39,950 bases of DNA from Candidatus Kaiserbacteria bacterium. GTDB taxonomy: Bacteria > Patescibacteriota > Minisyncoccia > Phycocordibacterales > Phycocordibacteraceae. The stretch lies in assembly GCA_023264445.1 (NCBI GenBank), contig JAHFMN010000001.1:135928-175877 (forward strand), given 5' to 3'. The translations under genes and the position numbers were made by a program. The stretch's first letter is position 1, and each line of letters opens with the position of its first letter. The notes beneath the pieces were generated by a model. The model did no database searches and was not told the origin of the DNA. It saw only the letters and a list, made by a program, of their open reading frames with translations. Positions 8,896-37,335 of the stretch are shown in pieces.

Positions 8896-8970
8896 GGCCC
8901 TATCGTCTAACGGTTAGGACACATCCTTCTCAAGGATGGAATCAGAGTTCGATTCTCTGTAGGGTCACCA
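8896..8970 (+). tRNA. tRNA-Glu (CTC)
   Basis: GGCCCTA/TAGGGTC acceptor stem, CATCC-TT CTC AA-GGATG anticodon arm, CAGAG-TTCGATT-CTCTG T arm, ACCA end. Confidence 0.95.
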
Positions 8971-10477
8971 AACGATTTGAACCACCATCAGATGGAGTTT
9001 TTACCTTGTAGATAGGTGATAATTCAGCGGTTTTAAATCCAGGATACTGGTACTCAAGGTTTTGAGGAAAGAAGAGTGGCAACAAAACTCTCAGCTCACC
9101 AGGCTCCAATTCTTTCCATTGATTCTGGAAATCTCGCACCACCCCCACAGCGAACTCCAGCATTGAATCTACCGAAGACTCTGGATTGCCAAGTTCCCGA
9201 TATCTCTCCTCCATCTCACGGATGTTGTTTTTACGCTTTGCTGCTTGCGTCATGTAATCAACATTATCAATAACACCATCCATACGCAGTTCCAATAAAT
9301 TCTCCAGTCCTTTTTCTAACTTCTTCAATGTGCGCTTAATCTTGAGTGCTTCTGTGACATTTTCTTTCTGTGTCCTCTCATGAACTACCAGCAATGTTTC
9401 TACAAGAGCGTTGAGAACAGCATCATTTGGGGTAATGTTTCTTACATACTCAGTAAAGTCTCTCTCAAATATTTCCTTTGCCACACTTCCTTTCTTTGGG
9501 CACTCTGGATTTATACAACTGTAATAGGCGTACTTCTTAGTCCTTCCTTTTACAAAACCTCCTGTCATGTGTCTCCAGCAATAGCCGCACTTCAATCCTC
9601 TTAAAGGAAAGTCAGGATTATTCCGATTGCGAGGGGCTTTTCTGCTCTTGTCTCCTCCCCTCATGATCCACTGCGTCTGCTCATACAGCTCTTCTGAAAT
9701 TATTGGCGTGTGCTTGCCTAACACATCTACACCAAGTTTTGGAATCACAACTCTGCCGTAATAGGCAGGATTTCTCAGAATTCTATAAACAAGCTGCTTG
9801 CTTATTTGAAGGTCGTGTTTGCTACGAGCGTTTGTAGTTTTCCTTATCTTGCGAGCTAGTTCTCTGAAAGTAATGGTTCCTCTTGAATATTCCTCATAAA
9901 TGAATTTCACGATTGGTGCCCGTTCTGGGTGTGGAATTATAATTTTCCTTTCGTTCACTATGATGTTTTTGTAGCCCCAAGGAGCCCCAGTAGGCCAATA
10001 ACCCTCAGAGGCTCTCATTCGCATGCCCGCCGTGGTTCTTTCAGAGCGCACAGCATTATCATATTCAGCTTGTGCTGCGAGGATACTTTCAGAGAATTTC
10101 CCCTGTGGTGTGTTCTCAATATTTTCCGTTGCTGATTTCAACTCCACACCATAATCTTTGAAGAACTTGCGAATGGTGTGGTAGTCCAGTGAATTGCGAG
10201 CGAATCTATCTACTTTGTAGATGATGAGATAGCCGACCTTGTCTCTGTTGCTGAGGCAATACCTCTGCATGCGAGCAAGTGCTGGACGCCCAAGAGTTTT
10301 TGCAGAAACCCCTTCTTCTCTAAAGATCTCCAATATCTTCAACCCCTCACGGTTAGCAAGTTCTCTGCAGGATTTCTCTTGACCTGCTAGGGAAAAATTA
10401 TAAGTCTGTTCCTCAGACGATACACGCACATAGATTATTGCTGTTCTTGGTCGTTTATCTGATGTTAAGTTTTCCAT
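8942..10477 (-). CDS. Large serine recombinase (integrase), integrated-state form
   Basis: YVRVSS catalytic Ser, DRFAR, recombinase domain (APWGY, GKHTPIISEELY), zinc ribbon (LKCGYC...YYSC..EC), coiled coil; the stop codon lies inside the tRNA antisense. Confidence 0.95.
   Translation of the reverse strand: MENLTSDKRPRTAIIYVRVSSEEQTYNFSLAGQEKSCRELANREGLKILEIFREEGVSAKTLGRPALARMQRYCLSNRDKVGYLIIYKVDRFARNSLDYHTIRKFFKDYGVELKSATENIENTPQGKFSESILAAQAEYDNAVRSERTTAGMRMRASEGYWPTGAPWGYKNIIVNERKIIIPHPERAPIVKFIYEEYSRGTITFRELARKIRKTTNARSKHDLQISKQLVYRILRNPAYYGRVVIPKLGVDVLGKHTPIISEELYEQTQWIMRGGDKSRKAPRNRNNPDFPLRGLKCGYCWRHMTGGFVKGRTKKYAYYSCINPECPKKGSVAKEIFERDFTEYVRNITPNDAVLNALVETLLVVHERTQKENVTEALKIKRTLKKLEKGLENLLELRMDGVIDNVDYMTQAAKRKNNIREMEERYRELGNPESSVDSMLEFAVGVVRDFQNQWKELEPGELRVLLPLFFPQNLEYQYPGFKTAELSPIYKVKTPSDGGSNRLVTLQRIEL
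8960..8968 (+). repeat. att core, left junction (TAGGGTCAC)
   Basis: 3' end of tRNA-Glu, identical to 16506-16514. Confidence 0.85.
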
Positions 10478-10576
10478 AGCGATATAGTCCTTATCACGCC
10501 TCCCTTAATTTCCGCTCGTTTTTGCGAAAGAATCAAGGGGAGGCAAGATGTGGGAAGTTTGATTAGTGGGTGGAAA

Positions 10577-10593
10577 TTGGTTTATAAACCCAA
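10577..10593. repeat. 17-bp site TTGGTTTATAAACCCAA, copy 1
   Basis: Contains the perfect palindrome GGTTTATAAACC; identical copy at 13631-13647. Confidence 0.8.
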
Positions 10594-10597
10594 AAAC

Positions 10598-10810
10598 CTA
10601 ATCCGGTGGGCTCCGTCCCTCTCCACACTCTGTTTCTTGTTTAGGAGCCAGTTTTGGGTGTTTAGGTGTGTGGCGTACCCAAGTTCTATGAAGTTCTTCA
10701 GCTACAGCGAAGAACTTATCAACTAGGTCGCCATCTTCTATCTGTTTTCCCGATAATCCAGCCTGAAGAAGCGCATTTTTAATACGCTCCCTCTCATGAG
10801 GGAGAAGCAT
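10598..10810 (-). CDS. Small hypothetical protein upstream of the integrase (70 aa)
   Basis: ORF co-oriented with the integrase; N-terminus resembles the adjacent 45-aa ORF. Confidence 0.65.
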   Translation of the reverse strand: MLLPHERERIKNALLQAGLSGKQIEDGDLVDKFFAVAEELHRTWVRHTPKHPKLAPKQETECGEGRSPPD

Positions 10811-10819
10811 GGCTCTGAA

Positions 10820-10957
10820 TTAACGGCTGTATGAGCGAGCCACCACGCAATTGATAATGCCGTCAATAAGTGCCTCCTTCTCTTCGTTGGAGTAGCGGCG
10901 TTTTGTTCTGTCTAGGAGAATATCCTTCAATCTCTTTCGTTCAAATGGATTAAACAT
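10820..10957 (-). CDS. Small hypothetical protein (45 aa, not in the ORF track)
   Basis: Manual translation MFNPFERKRLKDILLDRTKRRYSNEEKEALIDGIINCVVARSYSR*, ending 9 nt before the next ATG. Confidence 0.6.
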   Translation of the reverse strand: MFNPFERKRLKDILLDRTKRRYSNEEKEALIDGIINCVVARSYSR

Positions 10958-10982
10958 AATGAACTTATTGCCCCGAACATAT

Positions 10983-11236
10983 GCTGTTTCAAAAATGAAA
11001 ACAGCCTAATGTCCGAAAGCGATTACCAGCCCCATGGATGGAGCTAACGAGGTAATCACTTCAAGGCATTAAGCTGTCTCCGATCAGTCCTGGCTCCCGT
11101 GAGGGCTCACCAAGCTGCATGGACTTTTTTCCTGACCCCGGAAGTTATAGCAACTCAGCCGGTCTAGGAGCTCATGCGTCGGGTTGTCCCGATGGTGTCA
11201 ATAAAAGTGTTTTCCATTTACCAGAACGAATCTGGC
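10983..11236 (-). ncRNA. Multi-hairpin leader/sRNA ending in a terminator-like stem
   Basis: Five successive hairpins after a TTGCAC-16-TAAAGT promoter (11270-11243); the final long stem 11077-11001 is followed by UUUCAUUUUU. Confidence 0.55.
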
Positions 11237-11271
11237 ACTTCTACTTTAACAAATCAATATTTTGGTGCAAG

Positions 11272-11294
11272 TTCTACAGATATCTTTTGTAGAA
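11272..11294. promoter_or_regulatory. Inverted repeat, candidate operator
   Basis: TTCTACA-N9-TGTAGAA abutting the leftward -35 box, between divergent units. Confidence 0.45.
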
Positions 11295-11336
11295 AATTAG
11301 GATAAAATGGGGGTGTTACCAGCTAAGAAATCCAAT

Positions 11337-11504
11337 ATGGCAAGCGGCAAGCACTCAAAGTCATTCAAGCTTGGACGAGATGCTCTTACTGGGGAATTTG
11401 TTCCCGTTGCACAAGCAAAGAGAAGCCCGGGACGATATGTCATTGAGCATGTTCCCAAAGCAGGTCACGGAGATGTTCCGAGGTTGCATAAAAAGCACAA
11501 GTAA
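11337..11504 (+). CDS. Small basic protein with GRDAxTGxF motif
   Basis: KLGRDALTGEFVPVAQAKRSP...VIEHVP; 55 aa from ATG 11337. Confidence 0.7.
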   Translation: MASGKHSKSFKLGRDALTGEFVPVAQAKRSPGRYVIEHVPKAGHGDVPRLHKKHK

Positions 11505-11553
11505 GAGAACTCTGTGTTTATTTTAGTTGCGCGTTTCATTTAATCAGTTCTGC

Positions 11554-12252
11554 ATGACCGAGGAGGAACAAATCGCACTAATTAAGAAACGAGAGGAGTG
11601 TGTAGAGAAGTATTTCAAGCACCATCGTGCAATCCAGACACTTAAGAAATTATCTGGAGATAAGCCCTTGACTCGCAAACAGGAGGTTTTAAGCGAATAT
11701 GGACGCTGGTTAGCACAGGTTGAATCCGCCCACTCCAGACTTGAGAGATATCCTATTTGGCTATCTTCCACAAATTCTGCTGTTGAAAGAAGAGGAATTT
11801 CACGAGTAGATCAATTCACATATCATATAGAGAACTACCTAGCCGCTGTCTATATTTTAAATGAGAGAGTCAGAAGACTGGTTAGTTATCTAGAGAAGCG
11901 AGGTGGCAGAAAACGCTGCAATACAACAACAATAGAATCTTTGCGAAAGGCTAGAAGAACATTCATGCTGTCACTAGATCCTCTTATGGAAATTAGGAGA
12001 AGACACACCCACGAAAAACACTTCAACGACAAAGAGCTCACAACGATGGAAATGGCCGATAAAGCAGGAGAATTTTCAAAAGACCCATCTGAAAAGAAAC
12101 AATTTAAGGGCTGGGCGATAATCCTACTACGCTTTCAACGCCACAGATGGAAGAAGATGTTGAAAAATAACAATCGGAATTTCTCTGTTTTACTTGGCAT
12201 GATTTACGAGCCGGCTGACAAGCTCGTATGGGAAATCTACCAAAAGACCTGA
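11554..12252 (+). CDS. HEPN-domain putative RNase (Cthe_2314-like)
   Basis: All-helical appearance, YHIENY...ER segment and R-x4-H motif (RRRHTH). Confidence 0.7.
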   Translation: MTEEEQIALIKKREECVEKYFKHHRAIQTLKKLSGDKPLTRKQEVLSEYGRWLAQVESAHSRLERYPIWLSSTNSAVERRGISRVDQFTYHIENYLAAVYILNERVRRLVSYLEKRGGRKRCNTTTIESLRKARRTFMLSLDPLMEIRRRHTHEKHFNDKELTTMEMADKAGEFSKDPSEKKQFKGWAIILLRFQRHRWKKMLKNNNRNFSVLLGMIYEPADKLVWEIYQKT

Positions 12253-12261
12253 GCTGTTGCT

Positions 12262-12290
12262 TTGCTCTACCGTCTTTATGGGGGTAAACT
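12262..12290 (+). promoter_or_regulatory. sigma70 promoter
   Basis: TTGCTC-17-TAAACT. Confidence 0.55.
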
Positions 12291-12349
12291 TCTATATGAC
12301 CTAAACCAGTGGCTTGCCGCTGGCATGGTCTCAAAATCATAGGACATGG

Positions 12350-12428
12350 AAAACCCGTCATCACGGCATGTCCTATGTTGCAGGGGGAAACTCCTGTAGA
12401 CCCGCAAGGGTTCGTGGTGGCGGGTTTT
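12350..12428 (+). ncRNA. c4-like antisense RNA
   Basis: 16-bp closing stem AAAACCCGTCATCACG/CGTGGTGGCGGGTTTT, GAAA and GCAA tetraloop hairpins, single-stranded CATGTCCTATGTT complementary to sites at 12338-12348 and 12448-12459. Confidence 0.75.
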
Positions 12429-12463
12429 GTGTTGCTTTTATTAGAAAAACATAGGACATAGTT

Positions 12464-12967
12464 ATGGACGCAAAAATCACATACGGAGTAGTTGGTACTC
12501 TGGTAGTTCTTTTGGCGGTTTCCGCATACTTCAATTTTCAATCAAAATCAGATGCCTCAACGACTGAAAATGCACAACAAGTAGAACAAACTGACACCTT
12601 GACTAGAGTAACCAGTTTATACAATCGGATGCTACCGAGTTTACCTCCGCATGACTTGTACTGTGTACCCAGCACGAAATCTTATTGCAATGTAGACGGG
12701 TGTAAGAATGTGGAGGCAAATGTCTTCGTGCTTCTAGGAAGAAAACAGAGTGGAGATAGTCTATTTATGGCTCGGTGTGATAATCAGCCCTGTGATATTT
12801 ATGACGTGAATCTCTCACAGTCTGGTGAATTTACGACCTTTGAGACAAAAGAACCTCATGGGATCTTGTTTAGGACATCTAACTTAGACCAGAGCTACAT
12901 TGAGGCTGTAACGCTAGGGACAGAATCTTTTGTTTCAAACGGTTTCTGTGCTCAGAGTAAAAAATAA
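12464..12967 (+). CDS. Membrane-anchored/secreted Cys-containing hypothetical protein
   Basis: N-terminal TM helix, six Cys in the soluble part, AGGA SD. Confidence 0.8.
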   Translation: MDAKITYGVVGTLVVLLAVSAYFNFQSKSDASTTENAQQVEQTDTLTRVTSLYNRMLPSLPPHDLYCVPSTKSYCNVDGCKNVEANVFVLLGRKQSGDSLFMARCDNQPCDIYDVNLSQSGEFTTFETKEPHGILFRTSNLDQSYIEAVTLGTESFVSNGFCAQSKK

Positions 12968-12971
12968 TGCT

Positions 12972-13517
12972 ATGAAATATCTTGCACCATTCATTCTATC
13001 GGTTCTGATGATATTCCCAGTCTCTGTATCAGCAGCAACTCTTACGCAGAATCAAATCAATGCAATTATCAGCGTTCTCATGGCATTCGGCGTTGACCAA
13101 GCAACCATAAATGCCGTGTCTCTGGCTCTTGCTCCCGTAGCACCAGAAACTAGCATAGCTCCTCTATATCAGCCACCACAGCCTGTGCTTGATACCCAAG
13201 CACCAGTTATAAATCTTAATAAACTTGCAAACTACTTCAAGACAAACAAGTTCTTCAGTAATGGTATCTATGGCACTGCAGGTATACAAGAATCAAATTA
13301 CATCAGTGATACTGGTTCTGGTGTGGCTACTGTCCAGTGGTTTGTAGATGGAGTTTCTGTTGCTCCTGCTCATGATTGGAATTATGGAAATGGAAAGTTT
13401 GCTCTTGATGTGACCAAGTATTCTAATGGCGAACACACCCTTAGAGTTACAGCAGTAGATAAAGCCGGAAATAGCAGCAGTGCATCAATCACAATAACAG
13501 TGAAGAACCCGAACTAA
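12972..13517 (+). CDS. Secreted protein with C-terminal bacterial Ig-like domain
   Basis: Signal peptide (..VSA), helical LTQNQINAIISVLMAFGVD segment, Pro-rich linker, VQWFVDG...NGEHTLRVTAVDKAGN. Confidence 0.8.
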   Translation: MKYLAPFILSVLMIFPVSVSAATLTQNQINAIISVLMAFGVDQATINAVSLALAPVAPETSIAPLYQPPQPVLDTQAPVINLNKLANYFKTNKFFSNGIYGTAGIQESNYISDTGSGVATVQWFVDGVSVAPAHDWNYGNGKFALDVTKYSNGEHTLRVTAVDKAGNSSSASITITVKNPN

Positions 13518-13630
13518 TGTTTAAAAAACAATAAAACATAGACTTCAAAATCAATTTATCTAATCCATAAATCAAAGAGAGTCGTGTTTTGAAAAACTGA
13601 TTAATAAATCAAGATATCAAGTTTGAAATT

Positions 13631-13647
13631 TTGGTTTATAAACCCAA
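13631..13647. repeat. 17-bp site TTGGTTTATAAACCCAA, copy 2
   Basis: Identical to 10577-10593. Confidence 0.8.
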
Positions 13648-13694
13648 TAATCCAATCTACAAAGCAGACGATAATCAATTACATCTCTAAACAA

Positions 13695-14744
13695 TTACCC
13701 CTGGTTCTTTATTCCCATTAAATCATTAACTATTTGCAATACTGGCGTACTGCTTTCTTTCTCGGTTTTAGATACGAAACCTATTGGCGCATGCTTGAAC
13801 ATTGATTCCGTTGCATTTTGTAACATTTCCGATAAACGAGGTTTTTCCTGTTGCTCTTCAACAGCAATGAAATCTTCCAAGGTACGAGCAACTGCTGCTC
13901 TATGGCGATTCACAGCGGCAAGATGTGAATTAACATTGTAGTTCTTCACTATAAATGAAAGTCCATACCAGAGGGAAGCAATTATCACTAGTTTAGCGAT
14001 TCCTATACTCCAAATAGCACCAGCATCTATTGCTGTCCCTGGAACAGCCGAAACCTGACTAAAGTATGAGACGGCAAGAAAGCCAAGATACCAAAGAATG
14101 CCCAACAGGATAGCGTAGCTAGCAATCACAGCCCAAAACCATTTGTCAGCCGCTTGCTTGTAGTTCCTTGTTTCTAGGTCAAAGTGTGATGCAAGACGAA
14201 CAGCGGCACGCTCTCCTTTTGCAGAGCCAACTTCTTTCCCAGCGATTCTAAGTTTCTCTGTTTCCTCACGCACCTTTTTGAGTTCATTTTCAAGATCTGT
14301 ACGAATCTGGATAACCTTTTTTACTTCCTCATCGGTCTGTTGCTGGTTTGGGTTTTCTCTGCGTCTTTCTTCACGGAGAAAAGTAAGAATCACCATTACG
14401 ATCTGTCTGTAAACAGTATCGTAAAAACCATCTACTCTTGCTTCAAAAGCATCATGCTCTTGTTTAGCATTTTGGACAGCTCCAATATCAAATTTACGCA
14501 ACCATTGAAGATGCTCTACCAGTTGATTTATCAAAGACTCCACCTGACCAGCCTCACTCCGAAGCAATAAATCTTTATATCCCAAATCATATGCCTCTTT
14601 AAGCCAGCTTTGTGCTTTGGACAGTTTCTCGTTTGCTCTATCAAATACCAAACTCCCAAAGCGACTATTATCCATGGCGAGTTTTGCCACCTTCACATCA
14701 AATACATTCTCAGCCGTTATATCTTTTTGTTCTTCAGAAGCCAT
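13695..14744 (-). CDS. Coiled-coil plus two-TM membrane protein (possibly DUF6161-like)
   Basis: Long helical N-terminus, two hydrophobic helices, NRHRAAVARTLEDF...MFKHAPIGF tail. Confidence 0.75.
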   Translation of the reverse strand: MASEEQKDITAENVFDVKVAKLAMDNSRFGSLVFDRANEKLSKAQSWLKEAYDLGYKDLLLRSEAGQVESLINQLVEHLQWLRKFDIGAVQNAKQEHDAFEARVDGFYDTVYRQIVMVILTFLREERRRENPNQQQTDEEVKKVIQIRTDLENELKKVREETEKLRIAGKEVGSAKGERAAVRLASHFDLETRNYKQAADKWFWAVIASYAILLGILWYLGFLAVSYFSQVSAVPGTAIDAGAIWSIGIAKLVIIASLWYGLSFIVKNYNVNSHLAAVNRHRAAVARTLEDFIAVEEQQEKPRLSEMLQNATESMFKHAPIGFVSKTEKESSTPVLQIVNDLMGIKNQG

Positions 14745-14832
14745 GGATTTTCATTGGAAATATTATACACTCTTACCATGTTTTACCGCATTTTTCAAGC
14801 AATAGAGCACTCTTTTGTGGTATGATTTTCGT

Positions 14833-15030
14833 ATGAAATGGATCTGGGAGAGAATCAAATTGAGCTGGGTAAATATCCTGTTGATTATCGCTATATTCTC
14901 ACTCTACATTTTCCTGTTCAATGACTATTTTGAGGTTGACCCTTATGGAGATGGTACTGCTTTCTACTATGCTTTGTGTGCTACTTTCCTTACAGTTTAT
15001 CTATGGAACAGGCAACAAATTACAAAATAA
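14833..15030 (+). CDS. Small two-TM hypothetical protein
   Basis: Hydrophobic ORF; TATGAT just before the ATG. Confidence 0.6.
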   Translation: MKWIWERIKLSWVNILLIIAIFSLYIFLFNDYFEVDPYGDGTAFYYALCATFLTVYLWNRQQITK

Positions 15031-15278
15031 TTGCTGGGTTTTTATTGCTTGTTCTTTTTCTATTGAATTTTCAACTGCATGATTCAAGAAAAGAGAACGC
15101 TATTTTGCAGGATCGGTTAGATGAATATCAATCAGCATTAAGCGAAGCTAACGACAATATTGATTCAGCAAATTCTATGATTGAAGACGCCCAGAGCTAT
15201 GCTTGGTCAAGCTATGAAGATATGGGATACGCTCTAGAGAATCTAAGCACAGTGGATACTGTGTGGGATCCCTACTAA
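15003..15278 (+). CDS. Single-TM coiled-coil hypothetical protein
   Basis: TM helix then acidic heptad-like segment. Confidence 0.65.
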   Translation: MEQATNYKIIAGFLLLVLFLLNFQLHDSRKENAILQDRLDEYQSALSEANDNIDSANSMIEDAQSYAWSSYEDMGYALENLSTVDTVWDPY

Positions 15279-15280
15279 AT

Positions 15281-15820
15281 ATGGACATTATTTACACAAT
15301 ATTAATAATTGGAGCAATCTGGTATGTTGGTAAATTGCTTTTACAACAAGCACCAACTAAACGAATTGAAAAATATGAGGAATTTGCAGAGGTGATGTTT
15401 AGGTCATATCAAACCACAAACAAAGTTTCCTTTGGCGAGGAGAAAGATCCACCAGAAGTATCCAGGATGAGGGATTGGTATATACGGCTAAAGGAAAAAT
15501 ACAAACACGACCAGACAAAACTTGTCCAGTTAGCGGAGGACTGGAAAGATTATGCTTTTAATTTAAGTAGCAAGAATATCAATCATTATCTTTGGCTAGA
15601 GGATGAGGATAAAGAAAGTAGCGATGAGCGTTATGGAAAGACACGAGAAGCACACATGAAAATAGAAGAGATTGAAAATAGATTCGCTAACATGCTTGAC
15701 CCCCAATATTATCTAGATTTGGTGGCTGAAAGAAAGAAGAAACAAGAAGAAGTTGAAGCATTTTGGGAATCTCCAGAAGACAGGCGTTATTTAAAAGAAA
15801 CACCGGCTACAGAGCCATAA
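15281..15820 (+). CDS. Single-TM hypothetical protein
   Basis: N-terminal TM, charged helical body. Confidence 0.7.
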   Translation: MDIIYTILIIGAIWYVGKLLLQQAPTKRIEKYEEFAEVMFRSYQTTNKVSFGEEKDPPEVSRMRDWYIRLKEKYKHDQTKLVQLAEDWKDYAFNLSSKNINHYLWLEDEDKESSDERYGKTREAHMKIEEIENRFANMLDPQYYLDLVAERKKKQEEVEAFWESPEDRRYLKETPATEP

Positions 15821-15840
15821 AAACAGAGTATGATGATTCT

Positions 15841-16362
15841 ATGAATACTGAAAAACCAAATGTTGGACTCGTTATACTAATCACAGCTGTCATAGTAGGG
15901 GGTGGTGTGTATTATTTTACCACTGGTGCAAAAAATCTTGATACTAATAATGCGGTTCAGACAACTTCCACACCGAATCAAACATCTAAAGAATATGCTG
16001 TAATGGGACGTCAACTTTGGAGTGCATTTCAGTGTGCGTCATGGGCTTCTGTAACGGGAGACAGCGAAGAACAAGAAAGACTTTTCTTATTTGGCTATGC
16101 GCAAGGAAAGACATTCCTTGAAGCGTTGAATTCTGAGAAGATTCAGCGAGATGACATATCTGAGAATGTCCCTATTGTAGTCACGATGCTTCTTCAAGGA
16201 CCAACGGAAGAATTTATACTGGGTAGACTTTTTGAAAATGCACAAGACAGTGCACTAAAAGATGTCTTTCAGACCGGGAATGAATATAATTCAGAGAGTT
16301 TACGAGAAATCATTGCTGGAAATAAGTACAGGGAGAGTAATTGCCAACTGATTGGAGAATAG
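15841..16362 (+). CDS. Single-TM hypothetical protein
   Basis: GLVILITAVIVGGGVYYF anchor, two Cys. Confidence 0.75.
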   Translation: MNTEKPNVGLVILITAVIVGGGVYYFTTGAKNLDTNNAVQTTSTPNQTSKEYAVMGRQLWSAFQCASWASVTGDSEEQERLFLFGYAQGKTFLEALNSEKIQRDDISENVPIVVTMLLQGPTEEFILGRLFENAQDSALKDVFQTGNEYNSESLREIIAGNKYRESNCQLIGE

Positions 16363-16405
16363 CAGGAGTTTTAACTCTATTAGGGGAGTATTTCTAACTC
16401 CTGCT
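16361..16405. terminator. Hairpin at the right end of the element
   Basis: AGCAGGAGTT/AACTCCTGCT 10-bp arms. Confidence 0.5.
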
Positions 16406-16514
16406 TGACTGGCATAAATCCACGCTTTTGGAGAGAAGCGAACTTAACGGCTGCCTTGCTGATTGCCTCCAATTGCTCCACTAAGGGTTTTGAATCTGGT
16501 ATCGTTAGGGTCAC
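16380..16514 (-). other. Detached alternative C-terminal coding segment of the integrase (joined only after excision)
   Basis: Open for 44 codons from the att core in the integrase frame: VTLTIPDSKPLVEQLEAISKAAVKFASLQKRGFMPVKQELEILP, then TAA TAG. Confidence 0.7.
16506..16514 (+). repeat. att core, right junction (TAGGGTCAC)
   Basis: Identical to the tRNA 3' end; contains the murF stop codon. Confidence 0.85.
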
Positions 16515-37207: not shown

Positions 37208-37279
37208 TCCGCGGTAGCTCAGTGGTAGAGCGGCTCGCTGTTAACGAGTTGGTCGTAGGTTCGAATCCTACCCGCGGAG
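37208..37279 (+). tRNA. tRNA-Asn (GTT), CCA not encoded
   Basis: TCCGCGG/CCGCGGA acceptor stem, GCTCG-CT GTT AA-CGAGT, GTAGG-TTCGAAT-CCTAC. Confidence 0.95.
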
Positions 37280-37335
37280 CAAATCTTTCGTAACCAACGC
37301 AATGGATTTAGCGTTGTATATACTGTAATTGTCTT

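Follow-up and report, generated by a model that had tools for sequence, protein, structure and literature searches.

What is the function of a highly structured RNA that an ultra-small bacterium from groundwater encodes on a small mobile island, directly ahead of a cargo gene? The question arises from a stretch of 39 950 nucleotides of a Candidatus Kaiserbacteria genome (the window, to which all coordinates refer), in which an initial annotation had described a branched RNA whose single-stranded arm is complementary both to a segment upstream and to a segment that covers the ribosome-binding region of the adjacent gene. This layout had been taken as that of a c4-like antisense RNA. The phage P1/P7 c4 antisense RNA was reportedly described by Citron and Schuster in 1990. 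It has two antisense segments, a′ and b′, which are matched by a1/b1 on the upstream side and by a2/b2 at the ribosome-binding site of icd, and acts as an RNA of ∼77 nt that is processed from the operon transcript. C4 shares its operon with icd and ant, and full repression of ant requires it (PMC8198154).

As set out below, the RNA belongs to LOOT. This motif comes from the screen of Weinberg et al. of 2017 (PMC5737381), is mentioned in the Rfam 14 paper (PMC7779021) as one of the RNAs derived from metagenomes, and is listed with two added covarying pairs in the Rfam 15 paper (PMC11701678). A search of the full-text literature, whose range ends short of the supplementary motif description of 2017, returned LOOT as catalogue entries only.

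Results

The locus encodes a full-length LOOT RNA

An Rfam scan of the window returned a full-length LOOT RNA (RF03000) at 12298–12412 on the forward strand, scoring 78.0 bits against a cut-off of 46.4 (E = 3.5 × 10−13) and spanning model positions 1–121 of 121. The two-part P1 with its conserved internal loop, P2, P3 with GAAA and P4 with a GNRA loop are all present in this copy, and its departures from the consensus amount to four non-canonical cells in the apical part of P2. The CTAA of P1 and the G on the ATGG side are invariant in LOOT (59 of 59 copies). Covariance models of C4, c4-2 and c4-a1b1 gave no match at E ≤ 10 on either strand of 12150–12650, and none of the C4 families reached its gathering threshold anywhere in the window; a permissive scan of 12150–12650 (E ≤ 10) listed LOOT and three chance-level matches. 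Given that the RNA is a LOOT and has no C4-family covariance match, we reject its membership of the C4 family; the kinship with c4 or with the CI RNA of phage P4 that the initial annotation proposed is not supported.

The pairings, stems and tetraloops described earlier, and the AGGA before the ATG, are all found at the locus (Table 1). Two of the elements take on another identity within LOOT. What was formerly regarded as a separate upstream target (12338–12348) forms the 5′ side of the intramolecular helix P2, which is kept in 83 of 87 copies of the family; likewise, the CUUG hairpin is not an element of its own, it is P1 of LOOT itself. Because the Rfam model ends at 12412, the B strand of the closing stem and the downstream site D2 fall beyond RF03000.

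Several lines of evidence argue that the pairings at the LOOT locus are not due to chance. A stretch of 191 nt folds with a z score of −5.12, and 0 of 200 shuffles fold as well. A repeat finder detects a direct repeat of 93% identity (12333–12347 and 12445–12459), and the 632-kb genome contains the 10-mer CATAGGACAT three times, always at this locus (twice forward and once reverse, corresponding to D, D′ and D2). The MFE structure of the 191-nt stretch is the P2 fold and its centroid is the multi-branch fold closed by A:B.

Table 1. Features of the island and of the LOOT leader, in window coordinates.
Feature	Position	Strand	Remarks
Low-GC island	8896–16450		35–44% GC vs 53–56% in flanks; right end approximate
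tRNA-Glu(CTC)	8896–8970		Island start
Large serine recombinase	8942–10477	−	Beside tRNA-Glu
LOOT P1	12298–12330	+	Outer helix 12298–12301 × 12327–12330, conserved internal loop; Rfam alignment, fold
P1 inner hairpin, CUUG loop	12306–12323	+	Rfam alignment, fold
J1/2, A-rich linker	12331–12337	+	A-run duplicated with D ahead of the downstream start codon
D, P2 5′ strand (putative anti-sequestor)	12338–12348	+	11 bp with arm
A, P2 loop region, 5′ strand of A:B helix	12350–12365	+	
D′ (arm), P2 3′ strand (putative sequestor)	12367–12379	+	Complementary to D and D2
P3 hairpin	12379–12398	+	GAAA tetraloop 12387–12390; Rfam, fold, covarying pairs
P4 hairpin	12399–12412	+	GCAA tetraloop 12404–12407; Rfam, fold; model end
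B, 3′ tail, 3′ strand of A:B helix	12413–12428	+	16 bp incl. G–U pairs; outside Rfam model
U-rich tract	12425–12443	+	Overlaps, then follows B; candidate terminator tract
D2, copy of D at ribosome-binding region	12448–12459	+	12 bp with arm
AGGA inside D2	12453–12456	+	7 nt ahead of ATG at 12464
Downstream ORF, 167 aa	12464–12967	+	N-terminal hydrophobic helix, 7 Cys; no family match
Second ORF, 195 aa	12930–13517	+	Signal-like N-terminus, weak Ig-like matches

LOOT occurs in relatives of the host and carries a hypervariable P2

The genome (632 071 bases on four contigs, scored 100% complete) has a single LOOT copy. LOOT was found in 36 of 101 near relatives, the source genome included (23 of 60 others in the genus, 13 of 41 genera), in 29 of 150 further genomes sampled across the phylum and in 0 of 14 control genomes, with three copies per genome at most. 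The hosts are relatives of Kaiserbacteria and Paceibacterota. The MurF-like protein of the window has relatives of 61–75% identity in Candidatus Kaiserbacteria, Paceibacterota, Parcubacteria and Patescibacteria.

Our working set comprised 87 LOOT copies, 59 with 1.5-kb flanks and 28 with 400-nt flanks; loci from related genomes are not independent observations. P2 is a contiguous helix of 9–14 pairs in the 83 copies that keep it. In the other four (L030, L052, L064 and L085) it was not cleanly found by a simple helix finder, and these were excluded from the arm/D2 and B:C counts (n = 83), as were L030 and L052 from the comparison of P2 and A:B energies (n = 57). In L064 a copy of D at the start codon is visible by eye.

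The sequence of P2 is hypervariable, with 77 distinct 5′ strands among 83 copies, which shared 8-mers sort into 62 groups. The variation mostly extends to copies of the same genome: in 15 of 17 multi-copy genomes no P2 was shared between copies. In genome G049 both copies (L012 and L063) have an identical P2 and an identical start-codon copy, yet different downstream genes, and judged from these sequences LOOT and its site seem to move as a unit. In G116 (L031 and L075) the P2, the start-codon copy and the downstream gene are all the same, and this pair may be a simple duplication. At a further locus (L060; G001:C65:3218–4812) two LOOT copies lie in facing orientation, separated by ∼560 nt; behind one of them (L060b) comes a canonical terminator, made of a hairpin plus a T-run, with no ORF, so that this copy looks like a stand-alone RNA gene.

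The loop of P2 can pair with the 3′ tail

The P2 loop is complementary to ∼20 nt following P4 in 57 of 59 copies, with predicted duplex energies of −20 to −42 kcal mol−1 (−28.1 kcal mol−1 in the window), and RNAalifold picks this helix, A:B, on a plain MAFFT alignment of the 59 copies extended by 26 nt. Scored on the same alignment from which the structure was taken, which gives A:B some favour although the margin is large, 92.2% of the cells over 59 copies are paired, compensatory changes occur in 15 of 15 pairs, and 166 cells are doubly changed. The observed value was reached by 0 of 500 shuffles on four of five measures and by 3 of 500 on the fifth, and sliding the partner by 1–3 columns left 41–52% of the cells paired. 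A:B shows G–U pairs with U on the 5′ strand, alongside the GNRA and UUCG loops; both mark the LOOT strand as the one that acts as RNA.

A:B ends in a U-run, but ∼47 nt, folded into two hairpins, lie between its strands, and the terminator scan made no canonical call at the LOOT locus of the window. A run of at least four T follows B in 64 of 87 copies. In several copies, U-run positions change to other letters with the pairing kept, as in the column pair 76/184 (AU 13, GU 11, CG 10, GC 4). In many loci the B strand has a further partner in segment C, which lies behind the U-run: the own B:C pairing had a median of −15.4 compared with −11.6 for controls, and in 32 of 83 loci it ranked among the top 5% of its controls. 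No such segment is present in the window, whose own B:C pairing gives −7.1, as against the family median of −15.4.

In about a third of the loci the arm covaries with a site at the start codon

It had been set in advance that a functional pairing of the arm with the ribosome-binding site should covary in homologues. We compared the arm and a few flanking letters with the region +26 to +115 past the Rfam end, and recorded the longest uninterrupted Watson–Crick match. (A GU-tolerant target scan over 300 nt was too noisy, with controls at 10–15 bp, and Watson–Crick-only counts were used instead.) Over 83 loci the match of each arm to its own downstream region was bimodal, with 9–13 bp in 31 and 3–8 bp in 52, and mismatched arm/region controls reached at least 9 bp in 13 of 6694 pairs. 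The 31 D2 sites represent 24 distinct 9-mers; covariation of the arm with the ribosome-binding region was thus confirmed, for about a third of LOOT loci and not for the whole family. As 52 of 83 loci are without D2, pairing of the arm to the ribosome-binding site cannot be the general output of the family.

Where D2 occurs, its position is tied to the start of the gene. In 26 of 31 loci an ORF-opening start codon was found within −6 to +12 nt of the end of the site (actual range −4 to +7), and a stricter earlier count, restricted to −30 to +6 around the called start, gave 16 of the first 58 loci versus 1 of 3254 controls. D2 of the window ends 4 nt ahead of the ATG at 12464. D and D2 pair with the same arm nucleotides, their end offsets being ≤ 3 nt, and D2 usually carries along a copy of the A-rich linker that precedes D. 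Since the offsets scatter around 0, we ruled out a toehold arrangement in which D2 would pair further along the arm than D. By eye, genes behind a start-codon copy mostly have no Shine–Dalgarno-like purine run, the copy sitting in its place; exceptions with such a run are the window (AGGA) and L019. Many distant copies without D2 show clear GGAGG-type sites, again by eye.

The competing helices are close in predicted energy

State energies were obtained as nearest-neighbour predictions with constrained folding. For the short RNA the P2 and A:B states differed by a median of 0.1 kcal mol−1, A:B being lower in 28 of 57 loci; the values in the window were −66.1 for A:B and −58.9 for P2. In the full leaders of 29 loci with D2, the median difference between P2 and arm:D2 was −0.7 kcal mol−1, and the lowest predicted state was P2 in 14, arm:D2 in 11 and A:B in 4. 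In the full leader of the window, arm:D2 without A:B (−62.3) is predicted to be less stable than P2 (−69.4) or A:B (−68.2), and arm:D2 together with A:B would constitute a pseudoknot with a 1-nt linker.

From helix geometry we infer that P2 and A:B exclude each other in full, because A fills the P2 loop with 1-nt linkers, and a 16-bp A-form helix could not be bridged while P2 is closed; partial coexistence as a pseudoknot is conceivable. On the strength of sequence comparison and modelled folds, we assign a probability of roughly 0.55 to the reading that 12298–12459 is a multistable 5′ leader, that is, a switch of anti-sequestor, sequestor and ribosome-binding site which gates translation of the 167-aa gene and in which LOOT is sensor-like. 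Such a leader would consist of LOOT (P1–P4), a 3′ tail and the copy of D over the ribosome-binding region. In the ON state, closure of D:D′ (P2) would keep LOOT intact and the arm locked, leaving the ribosome-binding region free. In the OFF state, P2 would not be formed and the arm would pair with D2, covering the AGGA. A:B would oppose P2, such that formation of A:B or loss of D could free the arm for D2, and, ending in a U-rich tract, A:B may add transcription termination. We infer this direction of regulation, as well as its action in cis.

The leader stands before diverse cargo

The element that carries the locus had been regarded as a non-phage island, and this assignment stands, given its low GC content, the serine recombinase at tRNA-Glu and the absence of recognisable phage structural genes. 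The 3′ end of the recombinase ORF overlaps the 3′ end of tRNA-Glu(CTC), precisely where the low-GC island starts; on the other side, near 16.4 kb, we found no second copy of the tRNA end as a mark of the island border. A 27-nt direct repeat, 89% identical and with an internal palindrome, lies at two intergenic sites in the island, one (10577–10603) beside the recombinase gene and the other (13631–13657) between convergent cargo genes, where it overlaps a promoter-like site. A second tRNA gene, tRNA-Asn(GTT), is found at 37208–37280 of the window.

Searches with Pfam and PHROGs returned no named family on the island besides the recombinase, and no match of the downstream ORFs to icd-, ant- or KilA-like families. 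The Ig-like matches of the 195-aa ORF are sub-threshold (Big_13, 26.1 bits against a cut-off of 27; E = 1.2 × 10−5).

A promoter upstream of the window RNA, which had been part of the earlier description, was not confirmed: a consensus promoter scan found none between 12250 and 12300, and the region −40 to −6 of this copy contains no −10-like box. Among homologous loci such a box was present 6–40 nt upstream in 55 of 86, compared with 15 and 9 of 86 in two control windows. The LOOT of the window may be co-transcribed with a 241-aa ORF that ends 46 nt upstream. Many copies (among L002–L059) have a conserved motif of the form ACAAYTGAAT 8–20 nt upstream of LOOT, of which the window copy has a weak version only. 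Because it follows the −10-like box and precedes the first base of LOOT, this motif is probably part of the transcript 5′ end.

Downstream, a same-strand ORF follows 59 of 59 first-round copies according to a mechanical ORF picker, and starts 40–70 nt past the Rfam end in 44 of 59. The neighbouring genes on both sides are unrelated across loci, and there was no sign of a dedicated protein partner: the largest downstream cluster holds 5 of 55 proteins, and upstream clusters have at most three members. The 55 proteins encoded downstream are a diverse set, in which even the most frequent Pfam families (SHOCT and zinc ribbons) have no more than three members each, with Imm_superinfect, TM2, Dam methylase, SNase, Cap15, DUF4352 and FemAB among the others. 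They contain no coherent pathway that would point to a ligand.

Discussion

The leader reading has to be weighed against other explanations of the same pairings. LOOT could be a cis-encoded antisense RNA that acts in trans in the manner of c4. A species of ∼130 nt, closed by A:B and generated by termination at the U-run after B or by processing, would expose the arm and repress read-through or incoming cargo mRNA at D2, with D serving as an internal mask. The A:B-closed fold does leave the arm single-stranded and is the predicted MFE structure of the short RNA in the window. The frequent T-run after B, the sRNA type that Rfam gives to LOOT and the terminator of L060b, with no ORF behind it, also fit such a species. 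Furthermore, the hypervariability of P2, both across the family and between copies of one genome, would provide each copy with a private address, and the D2 sites of 9–13 bp lie in a range typical of sRNA seed pairing. Yet there is no C4-family match, and in several copies the U-run positions covary to non-U with the pairing kept, which suggests that the helix and not the U-tract has been selected. The target, moreover, lies only ∼20–40 nt past the putative 3′ end on the same transcript, with no room for a second promoter. In five genomes without a D2 in cis (G038, G099, G039, G040 and G086), exact 11-mers of D had one extra copy, which lay inside a long ORF and not at a start; with an estimated chance expectation of ∼0.3 per genome, we read it as chance. 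Overall, we consider this antisense reading rather unlikely.

Nor do we find much reason to favour the view that LOOT is a termination gate or a stable structural leader, in which P2 versus A:B decides termination or RNA stability alone and D2, either added in particular lineages or left over from a duplication, has no effect on regulation. The 52 loci without D2 still keep P2 and A:B, most copies have the U-run behind B, and for 32 of 83 loci the further pairing of B with C is in the top 5% of controls, all of which would suit this view. Against it, a remnant would not stay perfect over 9–13 bp across 24 sequences while covarying with both P2 strands, nor would its end be expected, in 26 of 31 loci, to lie between −4 and +7 nt relative to a start codon, and the scan calls no canonical terminator in the window; on balance, this account seems to us rather improbable. 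The direct repeats of variable sequence, D and D2, flank a segment of ∼100 nt and might for that reason be taken as the target-site duplication of a small mobile element, extending from arm to tail, that inserted before the gene. Duplication leaves unexplained, though, why the arm matches the complement of the repeat at all loci, the 52 that lack D2 among them, and the RNA-specific tetraloops (GAAA, GNRA and UUCG) and strand-specific G–U pairs point to RNA function. On these grounds we rejected target-site duplication, which has next to nothing to recommend it.

The multistable leader that we favour can be set beside several known systems. With the LOOT of Rfam it shares the full-length match, P1, P2, P3 (GAAA), P4 (GNRA) and the conserved internal-loop letters. 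It differs in that the model stops at P4, the A:B tail helix, C and D2 lying beyond it, and in that the Rfam entry gives sRNA as its type, while the copies here and in relatives are leaders 40–70 nt ahead of a same-strand ORF. Its likeness to P1/P7 c4 and P4 CI is one of layout only: an RNA upstream of a gene, on a mobile element, with complementarity to an upstream site and a site in the ribosome-binding region. In contrast to the two segments of c4, LOOT has a single arm, which finds one partner on either side; the upstream partner is a conserved intramolecular stem, and the downstream genes are not icd/ant-like.

Formally, the closest layout is that of translational riboswitches such as the thiM TPP riboswitch, whose platform consists of anti-anti-SD, anti-SD and SD. 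These, too, rely on competition among three segments, where a helix of the sensor fold keeps the sequestor off the ribosome-binding site, and LOOT likewise has a conserved fold with an alternative-pairing platform beside a gene. Unlike a conserved anti-SD, the sequestor of LOOT is a private, hypervariable sequence with a private site; LOOT also adds the A:B helix, and precedes diverse island cargo, not the genes of one pathway, with no ligand inferable. Metastable leader folds are also known from hok/sok-type systems, which resemble LOOT in having several conserved, mutually exclusive pairings and, possibly, kinetic control of translation. At LOOT there is no evident toxin gene or antisense partner gene, however, and no similarity in sequence or model.

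LOOT has been an orphan motif since 2017. The competing helices and the covarying start-codon partner now provide a concrete, testable mechanism for it, and the motif is placed in named lineages around Kaiserbacteria and Paceibacterota. Little is known of gene regulation in reduced, mostly uncultivated bacteria of the kind that host it. As a tentative extension, which we think possible and no more, LOOT may provide the sensor domain for multistable riboregulators of a class not yet described, which gate accessory and defence cargo of mobile islands in Patescibacteria. The competition between P2 and A:B would be decided by a signal from the cell or from the island, and the hypervariable arm with its start-codon copy would serve as the private address of a cassette. 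One and the same RNA could then regulate its own gene in cis and, in trans, none but cognate copies, a logic akin to immunity and arrived at independently of phage c4. If this were true, a portable RNA gate before diverse cargo would be a general regulatory device of the mobile gene pool of Patescibacteria, and the gated cargo would include superinfection-immunity proteins, nucleases, methylases, a CBASS-type effector domain and small membrane proteins.
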